A stretch of DNA of 64,000 nt from a virus: the IMG/VR virus record IMGVR_UViG_3300037089_000424. One strand, written 5' to 3'. Within the stretch, counting starts at the first letter, position 1. Each line of letters starts with the position of its first letter. This document shows, piece by piece, positions 6,513 to 22,871 of this stretch. The position numbers and the translations under genes were made by a program. Below the pieces are notes generated by a model. That model did no database searches and was not told the DNA's origin. It worked only from the letters and a program-made list of their open reading frames with translations.

Positions 6513-7592
6513 TTAGATGAAATTGACGTGATCGGGAGCATCGTCTGTAGGCAATTCTCCCAAGACAAGATACGCTTGCAGACTCTTGTTAGCTTGGTTC
6601 AACTGACAGAGCGGAGTGCACTCGTGCGTGTCAATCGACGTATGCAGTTCCAGCCTTCTATGGCCCTTCCAAATATCAATGAATGATTCGTCTTTGATGT
6701 TCCCGAGGACCATTTTTGGGTCTTCCTTATATGCACAGCAAAAGAAGACTTCCCCTGTCGCACCAATCACTGTCTCGAAGGCATGCGCGTGACACCGATG
6801 ATAAGTGCGACCCCAATTCTTCTCAAGAACATCCTTGAACTGACCCTCTGTTGCTAGGACCTTGAACTTGTCAGTTGTGAAGTCCTGTTTTGCTATCTTC
6901 ATGTGATAGAAGATTTCTTCCCACGCAGCAAGATCTTTAGCCTGTAGAATCTCTACTTGATGATAAGGTCTGTACTGACAGTAGTCTATGCCAAGCTTCG
7001 CGCACAGCTGGGCAAAGCTATAGATGTCCATCATCGTCCTTGGCGCCGTAAGATACCCAGCACCAATGGTGCAAGATCCACCATACCGCCCCTTGTAGTC
7101 TGCCATCGCAACCAGATTGAGGCATATTTTCTTGAAATCTGCTGGTCCGGCTCCGTGCGTCAACATATGCTGTGCCATGCAACTTGCGTCCAGACTGACT
7201 CGAACCCAAGTGCAGATATCTATAAAGAATCCTGGGTCCGTCAACAAGGTGCCATTCGTGATCAAACCAACCTGTATCCCAAGGTCTTTCGCAAGTTGCA
7301 TTGCGCCACGAGTGGCTGGATTCACGAGAGGCTCGCCACCGCCAGAAAATGTGATTGCCTTCAGACCGATGTGGCTAAAGTCCTCTATCAATCTGGCCAT
7401 ATCTGAATAAGAGAGGCTGTTGCTGTTCGTGGCGAGCAAGCCTTTGAATATGCAATCCGGACACTCGTGATTGCATGCATTCGTTGGGTCAAGTTTGCAC
7501 GAAATTGGCCAAGCGTCAGTTGGTGATTTGTGCCATTCCCTAACCCTTTCAGCGTGGTACATGATTTTGTTTGGTTTGAACTGATTCATCAC
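6513..7592 (-). CDS. radical SAM protein with SPASM/twitch domain
   Basis: CNHECPDC (CxxxCxxC), FSGGGEPL, ITNGTLL; C-terminal RC...GEVFFCC...LGNIKDESFIDIW...CTPLC. Confidence 0.92.
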   Translation of the reverse strand: MMNQFKPNKIMYHAERVREWHKSPTDAWPISCKLDPTNACNHECPDCIFKGLLATNSNSLSYSDMARLIEDFSHIGLKAITFSGGGEPLVNPATRGAMQLAKDLGIQVGLITNGTLLTDPGFFIDICTWVRVSLDASCMAQHMLTHGAGPADFKKICLNLVAMADYKGRYGGSCTIGAGYLTAPRTMMDIYSFAQLCAKLGIDYCQYRPYHQVEILQAKDLAAWEEIFYHMKIAKQDFTTDKFKVLATEGQFKDVLEKNWGRTYHRCHAHAFETVIGATGEVFFCCAYKEDPKMVLGNIKDESFIDIWKGHRRLELHTSIDTHECTPLCQLNQANKSLQAYLVLGELPTDDAPDHVNFI

Positions 7593-20249: not shown

Positions 20250-20369
20250 TCATATCCCTCGTCGGTCATTCGCTTTTCTCTGATGGTAGCTGAGAGGCGA
20301 CACCCAGGCTGTTGGTGTACTCGGAGTGTGTGGCGCATTCGTAGGATTGACTACGTTGGTAGTTGCCAT
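20250..20369 (-). CDS. possible 39-aa peptide (MATTNVVNPTNAPHTPSTPTAWVSPLSYHQRKANDRRGI)
   Basis: GGAG RBS then ATG 20369; fills the gap between two genes. Confidence 0.35.
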   Translation of the reverse strand: MATTNVVNPTNAPHTPSTPTAWVSPLSYHQRKANDRRGI

Positions 20370-20381
20370 AGACTAAACTCC

Positions 20382-20894
20382 TTATTGTTCTGTCGCGTTC
20401 GTCTCCAAGTCATCGAGCTCCCCATCTGCGTCATAGATGCGAACTTCCGCAAGATCGTGGTGCTTGGCAGCCATCTTAAAATTTCCCTTCTTGGCAAATG
20501 CAGTTGCTTTAGCCATATGCGTATCCGCCATGCCAAGAAGATTGTCAGCTTGGCCGGTATCACCAAGCTCAGATGCCCCATTAGATCTATCATAGACAGC
20601 AGCAAGTTGCCCTTTGAGATCTTTGTGCCGATCATTATGCTCTTTCTTACTTCCATAGAGGTCATGAAAGCTCTTTGCCGACATCTTCTTTTCGTCGTAA
20701 TTTGCCGTCACTGGACGAACTTGCTGGGCCTGAGCTTTCTCCAGAGCCTTGTTGAGACGAGCGACTTCACACTTCAGAACGTCGATGCACATGTCCAACT
20801 TGTAGTGGCCAGCCTTTCGCAGCAACGTATTAGCCTGCGTGTTAGACATGCCACATCTCGAGCACCTGAATCTATCAATTGATTTCTTGGCCAT
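20382..20894 (-). CDS. hypothetical helical protein with N-terminal CxxC
   Basis: ATG 20894 behind GGAGGTGA; CSRCG; His-rich helices. Confidence 0.7.
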   Translation of the reverse strand: MAKKSIDRFRCSRCGMSNTQANTLLRKAGHYKLDMCIDVLKCEVARLNKALEKAQAQQVRPVTANYDEKKMSAKSFHDLYGSKKEHNDRHKDLKGQLAAVYDRSNGASELGDTGQADNLLGMADTHMAKATAFAKKGNFKMAAKHHDLAEVRIYDADGELDDLETNATEQ

Positions 20895-20990
20895 GATACT
20901 CACCTCCAAATATCGACGTAGGACGTCACCCGATTTGTTTCAGCGAGTAGAGCCGTCCATCTCTGAACGGTTCTAGTCGCTGGAAGGTTC

Positions 20991-21206
20991 TCAGTGAAGG
21001 AACCTTCCCAACGACTGTAATCTTTTTGGTTTTGGGCATAGCAGATAAGCGCTCACCTTCGCTCGGACTCTATCAAAGTCCTGGAAGTATTTCGGAGAAC
21101 CTACAGGTTTGCCACGCCATATTTGGCATTGTGGCTTTGGTTTGTCCTTGGTCTCCTCACGTGGTTTCATCTGATAGTGGATCAGGTGGGTGGCTTTAGT
21201 ACCCAT
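20991..21206 (-). CDS. hypothetical basic protein
   Basis: ORF track only; weak RBS. Confidence 0.4.
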   Translation of the reverse strand: MGTKATHLIHYQMKPREETKDKPKPQCQIWRGKPVGSPKYFQDFDRVRAKVSAYLLCPKPKRLQSLGRFLH

Positions 21207-21209
21207 CTA

Positions 21210-21772
21210 CTACTTATCAGAATCGGACTCGGATTGTCCTTACCACGGTTCTCGTGTCTGGCCAAGCGGACCAGCCTACTGAAAGGCCACCAGCTACGAA
21301 GGTCTTGGCCACCATCACCAACATGCCTTCTGGGCGTCGTCCGTTTCATCAGACACTAGCCTGTTCCACTATGGCAGACAGAAAACCTTGCGGCTCCTGC
21401 GGCCAACCGAGTCCTCTGTGGGGAAAACTTTTCCCTCATAGGAGGTTCGCTTGGTCTAGTGGAACTTTGTATGTTACCTTTCGCCGGCTGCCTACCGTCT
21501 CAGCCTAAGTCTCCTGTTGGACTTTACGTCTAGGGATCCTTGCGTAAGACTGAGCATCTTGGCTTTGAATCAGACGTCCCTTTATTTCCAGCCGTACCCT
21601 GCGGTGCTCTCCCTAAATGAAGCCGAAGCAACGGGAACCGTGGCCCTAACTGGTTTACACGTGGCGCCTGACCACTGCCTGAAAGGTTTGATTTGTCAAA
21701 GGACGTTTAAGGGTCAGCTACTTTTGGACTCGCCGTCCGGGTATCCGTTGCCCCCTATTCACTTCTTACTTA
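21210..21772 (-). ncRNA. candidate ~560-nt structured non-coding RNA
   Basis: no credible minus-strand ORF; several long-range complementary pairs; sigma70-like promoter directly upstream. Confidence 0.55.
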
Positions 21773-21779
21773 GGGTATT

Positions 21780-21808
21780 ATGTTACTATTTCTAGGTTCC
21801 AATGTAAA
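21780..21808 (-). promoter_or_regulatory. sigma70-like promoter TTTACA-17bp-TAACAT
   Basis: -35 at 21808-21803, -10 at 21785-21780, exact 17-bp spacer. Confidence 0.6.
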
Positions 21809-21822
21809 GAAAAATCTTGGTA

Positions 21823-21845
21823 TAAAATCCCGAGTAATCCTCGGG
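21823..21845 (-). terminator. terminator candidate ending the primase/methyltransferase transcript
   Basis: CCCGAG/CTCGGG stem followed by ATTTTAT. Confidence 0.5.
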
Positions 21846-21862: not shown

Positions 21863-22168
21863 TCACAGAACACTCAGCCTTCTCGGGGTTTCTCCGACTG
21901 CGAGGTCTCCAAAATCATCAGACAAAATCCTTACATACTTGCGAAGGCGCTTTGCTAATTTCGCAGTGTGAGAACCGTACCACCGCACCCAGCCGCCACC
22001 ATCGAACTCATGGAAAGACCCTCCGAACAGAACGAAGATCCGCCTCGGAAGACTACCGCGCATCCAGAGTGAGACATACGGTACACCCTGATGGATGTGG
22101 ATCTTAGCCTTCGCATCGAACACACCAGCATAGTATGACAAGCTTCTGTGTGTCAACTTCTCACTCAT
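21863..22168 (-). CDS. single-motif LAGLIDADG-like protein, catalytic acid replaced
   Basis: LSYYAGVFDAKAKIHI resembles YLAGFFDGEGSI; ATG 22168. Confidence 0.6.
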   Translation of the reverse strand: MSEKLTHRSLSYYAGVFDAKAKIHIHQGVPYVSLWMRGSLPRRIFVLFGGSFHEFDGGGWVRWYGSHTAKLAKRLRKYVRILSDDFGDLAVGETPRRLSVL

Positions 22169-22871
22169 AGATTTTCCTTTTATAGACAGCCAACGTATGC
22201 CTCCCAACAGGGACAATTCCCACACCCTTTCTGTGGTAGAGACCGAACCTTGGCTCTCTAACAGCCACAAATCCCTGGGAAAGAATTCGCTTGTGTAATT
22301 TGACAGCCAGAGGCCCAACGACAGCTTTGGGTTGGAAGTGAATCTCAATCGCCAACCTCTTAACGAATTTTGGCAAGATGGTATTGAACAGTAGGTCGTA
22401 CTCGCCACCCTCGCAATCGCATTTGACTTTGTCTGGCCGATATTTCCGTAGCAACTTGAGAAATTGGATCGCTCGCACGATGACCGGCTTGCGACCTCTC
22501 ATCGGAAGCAAAGTGTGCAACCCCCTGGACTTGTGAGTGTTTCTATACAGAGTCACCTTCCAACTCGTCACCTTGCTAGAAACTACCGCTCTGTTGATCC
22601 GTGTGATCTTGCCGAACCCTATAGTGTTCTTCCTGAGTAGCCCGAAGTTGTCTGAATCCGGCTCCACAGAAATGACTCTTGCCACACCCAGAGCCTCGGC
22701 ATGGCGAGCGAACCCTCCAACGTGGCCACCGATGTCCAGCACCACATCTCCAGAAGTCAAGTTCAATAATCGATATTCGGTTCTGGCTCCAGACACAAGC
22801 TGATTGTCGGTGGTTCCTCTCCTACAAAAGAGACCGTGGTGCTTGAACAATTTAGTAAACAGTCGGCTCAT
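22161..22871 (-). CDS. FkbM-like SAM-dependent methyltransferase
   Basis: VVLDIGGHVGGF, ISVEPDSDNFGLLRKN, KVKCDCEGGEYDLL; ATG 22871 behind GGGAGAGG. Confidence 0.85.
   Translation of the reverse strand: MSRLFTKLFKHHGLFCRRGTTDNQLVSGARTEYRLLNLTSGDVVLDIGGHVGGFARHAEALGVARVISVEPDSDNFGLLRKNTIGFGKITRINRAVVSSKVTSWKVTLYRNTHKSRGLHTLLPMRGRKPVIVRAIQFLKLLRKYRPDKVKCDCEGGEYDLLFNTILPKFVKRLAIEIHFQPKAVVGPLAVKLHKRILSQGFVAVREPRFGLYHRKGVGIVPVGRHTLAVYKRKIYE

Follow-up and report, generated by a model that had tools for sequence, protein, structure and literature searches.

A candidate boxA-led structured RNA downstream of the replication genes in a family of soil phages

The window, by which we mean the whole 64,000-nt stretch of DNA under analysis (IMG/VR record IMGVR_UViG_3300037089_000424), belongs to an uncultured peat-soil phage in which nearly all of the genes seen lie on the minus strand. 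Following that strand, genes for a DnaB-like helicase, a primase and an FkbM-type methyltransferase are succeeded by a 101-aa ORF, by a long gap and by a gene of 170 aa to which no family could be assigned, beyond which come a UDG-like gene and then an FtsK-like gene (Table 1). Since the 170-aa gene begins at an ATG that is preceded by the ribosome-binding site GGAGGTG, the limits of the untranslated stretch on the minus strand are 21862 and 20895 (about 968 nt), not 21210 and 21808. The initial annotation, which had proposed here a structured non-coding RNA of ~560 nt, thus drew its limits too narrowly, the element itself measuring about 880 nt; its description of the locus as the largest gap in the genome is roughly right by a crude measure combining ORFs and codon scores.

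Table 1. Features of the locus on the minus strand of the window, in order of transcription
Feature	Position	Strand	Basis or remark
DnaB-like helicase gene	25106-23814	-	gene order upstream of gap
Primase gene	23817-22852	-	gene order upstream of gap
FkbM-type methyltransferase gene	22997-22161	-	between primase and 101-aa ORF
LAGLIDADG-fold ORF, 101 aa	21863..22168	-	orthologue alignment, profile match
Terminator-like hairpin CCCGAG-GATTA-CTCGGG, then U tract	21829..21845	-	sequence
Sigma-70-type promoter TTTACA-17-TAACAT	21780..21808	-	sequence; equivalents in relatives
Whole untranslated RNA (inferred), about 880 nt	20895..21773	-	inferred start to base before ATG
5' hairpin GGAC-GGCGA-GUCC, 4 bp	21726..21738	-	ends 22 nt before boxA; z +0.4
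boxA-like element ACG-TCCTTTGACAAAT-CA	21689..21706	-	unguided MAFFT; weight matrix
Motif-2 hairpin: G-rich arm, RAGUUU loop, C-rich arm, then GAGRRUUC-like tail	21418..21440	-	alignment
P-a: UCGUU-G-GGAAGGUUC, 9-nt loop, GAACCUUCC-AGCGAC	20976..21014	-	constrained folds
P-b: UAGAACCGUUCA / UGGACGGCUCUA	20948..20975	-	covariation
P-c-like region CUCGCUGAAAC...UCGGG	20925..20946	-	weak copy of relatives' CCGCU-loop-AGCGG hairpin
Ribosome-binding site GGAGGTG	20907-20901	-	precedes ATG 20894 of 170-aa gene
Next gene, 170 aa, no family assigned	20382-20894	-	ATG at 20894

On either side of the gap the gene boundaries called for some attention. A mechanically listed ORF of 181 aa (22161-22408, minus strand) overlaps the methyltransferase gene; the true start of the 101-aa ORF is the ATG at 22168, and the resulting 8-nt overlap with the methyltransferase stop suggests translational coupling. 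Within the 170-aa gene, three contigs otherwise identical to the window (L002, L007 and L008) lack exactly 360 nt (20296-20654, 120 codons in frame), two others (L003 and L010) diverge from it at 20295 and run into a portal-like gene absent from the window, and several stop at 20655, 20600 or 20575. These differences between 20295 and 20655 could reflect indel variation in the population, or else an assembly or recombination junction.

The coding potential of the gap was analysed with a codon-usage log-odds scan in six frames, trained on 21 long genes of the window. From ~21860 to 20900 no coding signal was obtained in any of the six frames, the score being about zero or negative, and no genes had been called in the gap in 10 metagenome contigs that are 100% identical to the window. 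For the 71-aa ORF at 20991-21206, which coincides in part with a conserved RNA module described below, the score is 0.01 per codon.

Examined as a single sequence, the stretch gives little away. The minimum free energy of a 576-nt segment is ordinary (neither the minus strand, with z = -0.75, nor the plus strand, with z = -0.53, being significant), and complementary 7-, 8- and 9-mers number 17, 6 and 2, respectively, against 9.5, 2.4 and 0.5 in shuffles (p about 0.04-0.1); with an ordinary fold energy and a weak k-mer excess, the single-sequence evidence is insufficient to demonstrate structure. The four long-range pairs that the initial annotation had listed by coordinate are indeed exactly complementary, but in number such pairs are barely above what shuffled sequences yield, whereas the short 5' hairpin it had pointed out is present as described. 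Its broader proposal, a structured and promoter-driven non-coding RNA, draws support from other sources, namely the promoter of the relatives, covarying helices and strand-specific G-U pairs, the pairs seen in one sequence being insufficient for it; and the most informative feature of the locus, a boxA leader of the rrn type, had been missed.

A blastn search among 50,697 phage records returned no nucleotide sequence similar to the region. Relatives were therefore sought by other means, with the primase as anchor. Besides IMG/VR contig L001 (92.9 kb), this yielded some 25 loci from metagenomes and a handful of further contigs of viruses. Identity to the window primase among these relatives is 40-51%, and in almost all of them the primase, usually with the small ORF after it, precedes 1-1.8 kb that holds no credible ORF; the only close relative known has 82% identity in a neighbouring protein. 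About 15 of these distantly related soil-phage contigs have a common layout, in which the primase gene is followed by a small LAGLIDADG-fold ORF (usually), a sigma-70-type promoter, a phage-specific hairpin and an rrn-type boxA, and then by 0.8-1.7 kb that is rich in GNRA loops and holds no ORFs, by a 3' module and by the ribosome-binding site of an unrelated next gene.

Between the gap of the window and those of the relatives blastn finds no match, the likeness being at the level of motifs, and tblastx reveals no conservation at the protein level between gaps apart from islands that are conserved as nucleotides. Such islands, short and colinear, are common to the gaps of the relatives; shared 7-mers are about five times commoner than in shuffles, and many of them are GNRA-loop words, for example GCCGCAAGG and GCUGAAA. 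A total of 53 hairpins closed by GNRA and UNCG tetraloops lie on the gene strand, whereas the opposite strand has 26 and shuffles give 19.6. A further hairpin, which we call motif 2, occurs in seven sequences (the window, L015, L018, L020, L027, L034 and L056) and is conserved mostly in sequence. The remaining ~600 nt of the window RNA can be aligned to no relative, and the evidence of covariation covers parts of the molecule outside its 675-nt core. With a mismatch in its boxA, no hairpin adjacent to boxA and a shortened 3' module (21014-20925), the window copy is the weakest of the family, of which it is by this comparison a reduced and divergent member. Taken together, the shared layout, the covarying helices, the strand-specific signals and the lack of coding signal or protein-level conservation show an RNA-level element under selection across the phage family.

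At the 5' side of the gap, the terminator reported in the initial annotation was found as a hairpin followed by a U tract and probably closes the upstream unit of replication genes. The promoter reported there is likewise in place and is conserved in the relatives; it would set the start of transcription near 21773. Over 15 sequences the promoter scores average 8.7 of 12, compared with 6.6 ± 1.4 in control windows, and a score of at least 9.5 is attained by 7 of the 15 against 1.3% of the controls; nearly all of the spacers are 17 nt long. The boxA lies on the transcribed strand in all 15 sequences, at a distance of 26-76 nt from the end of the -10 element (76 nt in the window). At the position of boxB, 14 of the 15 carry a hairpin of 8-10 bp that ends 2-5 nt before boxA (mean z = -2.1 versus shuffles) and has an unrelated sequence in every phage. 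No such hairpin adjoins boxA in the window, where only the 4-bp hairpin located 22 nt upstream is found, possibly a weak stand-in for that of the relatives. RNAalifold yielded no pairs for 5' leaders anchored on boxA, since the register of the hairpin varies from one sequence to another; the evidence for the hairpins therefore consists of the folds of individual sequences compared with shuffles. The word GGUUAG recurs in the stem or loop of these hairpins in L001, L016, L019, L024, L026, L027, L034, L038 and L056, a recurrence that may point to recognition of the sequence and not just of a hairpin; the window instead carries GUUAGGG, some 45 nt downstream of boxA.

Unguided MAFFT alignment resulted in one block that includes the window, YTCTTTGAMAAMT. 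The family motif derived for boxA is GYTCTTTGAMAAMT, to which 14 of 14 relatives conform with small deviations at most, and the window version, GTCCTTTGACAAAT, departs from it by one mismatch, a C at a position that is T in every relative. A weight matrix derived from the 14 relatives gives the window boxA 15.1 bits, as against 21-28 bits in the relatives themselves, and ranks it second among the 128,000 positions of the window; in the 92.9-kb relative L001 the motif occurs once on the gene strand. The top match to the matrix in the window, TTGCTCTTTGTCAAAGTA (16.7 bits, 23968-23951, minus strand), lies inside the DnaB-like ORF and may be due to chance or to function. Another boxA-like word, at 15446-15436, was dropped, as it lies just before a ribosome-binding site and overlaps the upstream ORF.

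The gamma-proteobacterial boxA consensus is GYTCTTTAANA (PMC5725501). The family motif agrees with it in the first seven positions and, like it, continues in an A-rich tail. When TGYTCTTTGAMAAMTAA was scanned in one genome per prokaryotic species, 31 of the 81 matches among the loci listed were found 40-222 nt upstream of a 16S 5' end, one lay before a 23S gene and 21 fell within 450 nt of the end of a contig or locus. Ribosomal RNA operons break assemblies, so that contig ends often fall there. The other 28 of the 81 matches listed are not near rRNA genes, and the motif alone is consequently not proof. Taxa with a boxA of the TGYTCTTTGAMAAMTAA type upstream of 16S include Bacillota, Deltaproteobacteria, Nitrospirota and Ignavibacteriales, the rrn boxA of Bacillus subtilis being of the TGYTCTTTGAMAA type, and several relatives have as their boxA precisely the sequence present upstream of 16S genes. 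A literature search with the boxA variant as a text string retrieved unrelated papers only. As judged from its sequence, the conserved motif is boxA.

A different kind of evidence comes from the 3' ends of the gaps, near which the word (C)AGCGAC recurs, in the window at 20981-20976, with three helices around it. In P-a, an upstream UCGYU pairs with AGCGA; these outer arms are conserved and the inner arms are phage-specific. The latter differ among the six sequences compared and yet all pair, being 5' GGAAGGUUC with 3' GAACCUUCC in the window, GUCGAGAA with UUCUCGAC in L001, GAGGAGGAG with CUCCUCC in L013, GAGGAAAG with CUUUCCUC in L015, GAGAAGGAA with UUUCUUCUC in L018, and GGCAGUCAC with GUGACUGCC in L034. 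The alignment is here too poor for counting pairs, and P-a is therefore based on constrained folds.

Helix P-b was analysed in a plain MAFFT alignment of the window with six other sequences. Its 10 pairs are 98.5% paired and seven of them have changed on both sides; out of 500 shuffles, none was as good on four of five measures and one was on the fifth, and sliding the partner lowers pairing to 36-49%. Several of the pairs are G-U, which holds for the gene strand only, as the opposite strand would have C-A. The covariation that the initial annotation had proposed to look for is thus seen in the 3' module, in an alignment of the window with its relatives. For P-c, the CCGCU-loop-AGCGG hairpin of the relatives is conserved in sequence and hence carries no covariation information. 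When P-b and P-c were modelled from the relatives alone, the covariance model recognised members outside its seed, L027 (E 1e-7), L026 (E 2e-6) and L020 (E 1e-3), and in L027 and L026 the P-b arms form a perfect 10-bp helix of new sequence, that is, with compensatory changes. Applied to the window module, the same model gives 9.9 bits (E 0.01 in a search space of 1.1 kb), and the opposite strand scores higher there, at 12.5 bits, because AGCGA...UCGCU is self-complementary; given this weak score, the homology of the window 3' module is argued from alignment, from the pairing of P-a and P-b and from position.

The 3' module is single-copy in L001, and in 11 of 11 loci a distance of 5-50 nt separates its end from a ribosome-binding site with start codon. 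The genes downstream encode 42-476 aa and are mutually unrelated between phages. The words UCGCU, CAGCGA, CCGCUG and AGCGG of the module allow alternative pairings, either of P-a with P-c or of AGCG with CGCU, by which P-b is extended to 16-20 bp. In two relatives the module lies inside listed ORFs (L027, 5320-5760, 146 aa; L020, 7537-7914, 125 aa); these ORFs are therefore probably spurious, as is probably the 71-aa ORF of the window, and the RNAs of the two relatives exceed the length initially estimated for them. Enclosed by P-a in most relatives is an internal module, AAUCAGGCCC-[variable hairpin]-GGAUACCGCAUGAGUnUCUAGGAA (also AAUCAGGCCC...GGAUACCGCAUGAGU), located at 10090-10150 in L001, 7510-7600 in L018, 1975-2020 in L034, 6830-6860 in L026 and 6190-6275 in L056, where it is duplicated in tandem; no Rfam family matches it. 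As the window P-a closes a loop of just 9 nt, this internal module is absent from the window. A search with RNAduplex for a boxC or a leader-trailer helix gave no consistent partner, long segments always giving low energies, and neither a terminator nor a clear 3' end of the RNA was found. The only pairing detected between leader and 3' region is a perfect 12-bp match in L026 (6102-6113 with 6939-6950), which joins the 5' hairpin region (GGUUAGGGUAGC) to the P-b insert in that phage only.

The 101-aa ORF that precedes the RNA has orthologues of 90-107 aa, for example in L001 (8906-9178), L016, L018 and L027. The profile of this family matches I-MsoI and I-CreI (best E 6.6e-5, others weaker) and PHROG 5046 matches 8 of its 11 members, with no Pfam match for the window ORF. 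In all 11 orthologues the last acidic residue of the LAGLIDADG motif is replaced by Arg or Lys, at a position which, mapped onto I-CreI, we take to be that of the last catalytic Asp, so that the orthologues are probably not active nucleases; this suggests a non-catalytic protein that perhaps binds nucleic acid. The ORF is directly upstream of the RNA in most relatives and is missing at the P0014, P0021 and L056 loci, where the gap is kept, and hence it is not obligatory for the RNA; any link between the two is a matter of speculation.

No known class accounts for the element. In the window gap, the Rfam 15 covariance models that the initial annotation had recommended produced no match at gathering score, and up to E = 10 only chance-level microRNA and snoRNA matches; thirteen loci of relatives gave none either, nor did the L018 gap at E up to 5. 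No model was matched for ROOL, GOLLD, OLE, HEARO, RNase P, tmRNA, introns or riboswitches. Group I and II introns, retrons, CRISPR and tmRNA were rejected as identities on the empty Rfam results and because repeats, a split gene at the flanks and a reverse transcriptase nearby are all lacking.

Among known systems, a close parallel is found in the leaders of rRNA operons. There, the antitermination complex is made of NusA, NusB, NusE, NusG, SuhB and S4, and RNase III cuts the leader-trailer stem. The phage element has the order of the rrn leader, promoter, hairpin and boxA, and not that of the lambda nut sites; the boxA motif is alike, a long untranslated structured RNA follows in both, and there are likewise long duplex stems at the 3' side. 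In the rrn leader the order is boxB, boxA, boxC, and boxB is dispensable in E. coli (PMC10250234). The phage RNA differs in that its body is not rRNA, having no Rfam match, and runs straight into protein-coding genes, in that no boxC or leader-trailer helix is demonstrable, and in that the window boxA has one mismatch.

Early transcription of T7 uses host promoters A1-A3, followed by boxA and by the first early gene, with a leader of a few hundred nt. Host polymerase and a boxA placed after the promoter likewise carry transcription through an untranslated leader in that phage, a leader that to our knowledge is not a conserved 1-kb structured RNA; the element described here, by contrast, follows the replication genes in the middle of the genome and contains modules that covary. 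A boxA element is placed behind the early host promoters of T7 (Savalia 2010, as cited in PMC3709561). GOLLD and ROOL are large (about 0.6-0.8 kb), phage-associated structured RNAs of obscure function (PMC12286853). The comparison with these classes that had been offered at the outset applies as regards size, phage association and the nature of a large structured RNA, but the present RNA does not match their Rfam models and, having no terminator and a 3' end that abuts the next ribosome-binding site, could be an extended structured leader instead of an independent molecule. We know of no GOLLD or ROOL RNA that has a boxA leader or abuts a downstream ribosome-binding site. A boxA in front of CRISPR arrays protects their ribosome-free transcript from Rho. 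In the suhB 5' UTR, too, boxA protects ribosome-free RNA from Rho (PMC5725501). These cases are repeat arrays or short UTRs, and not conserved structured RNAs of ~1 kb.

From the promoter and the rrn-type boxA we argue for transcription by the host polymerase and for Rho resistance conferred by Nus factors, and the lack of a terminator together with a ribosome-binding site that always follows makes an RNA heading a transcription unit the safest reading. We thus favour, with a probability of roughly 0.6, a host-transcribed, Nus/boxA-antiterminated, single-copy structured RNA of ~880 nt at the head of the downstream transcription unit. Host sigma-70 RNA polymerase would start at the promoter at 21808-21780; the nascent boxA-like element would recruit a host antitermination complex centred on NusB and NusE, as on rRNA operons; and the polymerase would then cross ~0.9 kb of ribosome-free RNA without Rho-dependent termination and proceed into the downstream genes. 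The 3' module with P-a, P-b and P-c would most likely be a double-stranded processing site or a site of translation control. The lack of coding signal, the common layout, the covarying helices and the agreement of the motif with bacterial rrn boxA were observed in the sequences, whereas transcription of the region, its binding by Nus factors, its processing and whatever role its body may have are deductions. We regard it as an uncatalogued RNA family that combines a presumed Nus/boxA leader with a large structured body.

A tenable though unlikely alternative is that the ~0.8-kb body is cut at the 3' module, as rRNA is by RNase III, and acts in trans as a stand-alone non-coding RNA, for example as a scaffold, as a decoy for factors of rRNA transcription or ribosome assembly, or as the partner of the inactive LAGLIDADG-fold protein. 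This would agree with a length class of 0.8-1.7 kb and modules that are kept across phages whose primases are 40-50% identical, with the single copy, the many GNRA loops and the conserved internal modules, and with the fact that no conserved downstream gene accompanies the element; in L001 the next gene has a strong promoter of its own after the module, and the closing stem and P-b form a 16-20 bp duplex resembling an RNase III substrate. Against this, neither a terminator nor a defined 3' end was found, the window lacks the conserved internal module, and the constant proximity of the 3' module to a ribosome-binding site fits a role in cis equally well. A more far-reaching version, which we regard as doubtful, sees a class of ~1-kb RNAs that copies the strategy of the host rRNA operon and acts in its own right once released, either by tying up or redirecting host factors of rRNA transcription or ribosome assembly or as a ribonucleoprotein with the dead, maturase-like LAGLIDADG-fold protein.

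That the gap is a transcription-activated replication origin, whose promoter provides an R-loop or primer, seems improbable. Its position directly after the DnaB-like helicase and primase genes and its own promoter would suit such a role, and phage origins often need transcription; but there are no iterons or tandem repeats, the G+C content of 52-54% exceeds the genome mean, an AT-rich stretch for unwinding is lacking, the GC skew shows no switch, and the compensatory changes and strand-specific G-U pairs point to selection at the RNA level. Less probable still is a decayed or unusual coding sequence, or a set of small unannotated proteins (the 71-aa ORF and plus-strand frames of 84 and 92 aa), since, although ORFs of 55-92 aa exist in the gap, the codon scan is flat in all frames, Pfam, PHROGs and tblastx reveal no conserved protein in the short frames, ten gene-caller runs left the stretch empty, and in L027 and L020 the RNA 3' module lies inside such ORFs.

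For annotation, these results mean that gene callers put spurious ORFs of 70-146 aa inside the RNA. Phages have few large structured RNAs, the functions of which are mostly obscure; the one described here carries a readable instruction in its rRNA-type antitermination leader, which makes it tractable together with a 3' module that is defined and natural variants that number at least 15. Should the boxA be functional, phages that infect uncultured bacteria of the soil would use Nus in the manner of rRNA operons without an N-like protein, either making or crossing a long ribosome-free RNA, which would extend this strategy beyond T7 and the lambdoid phages.
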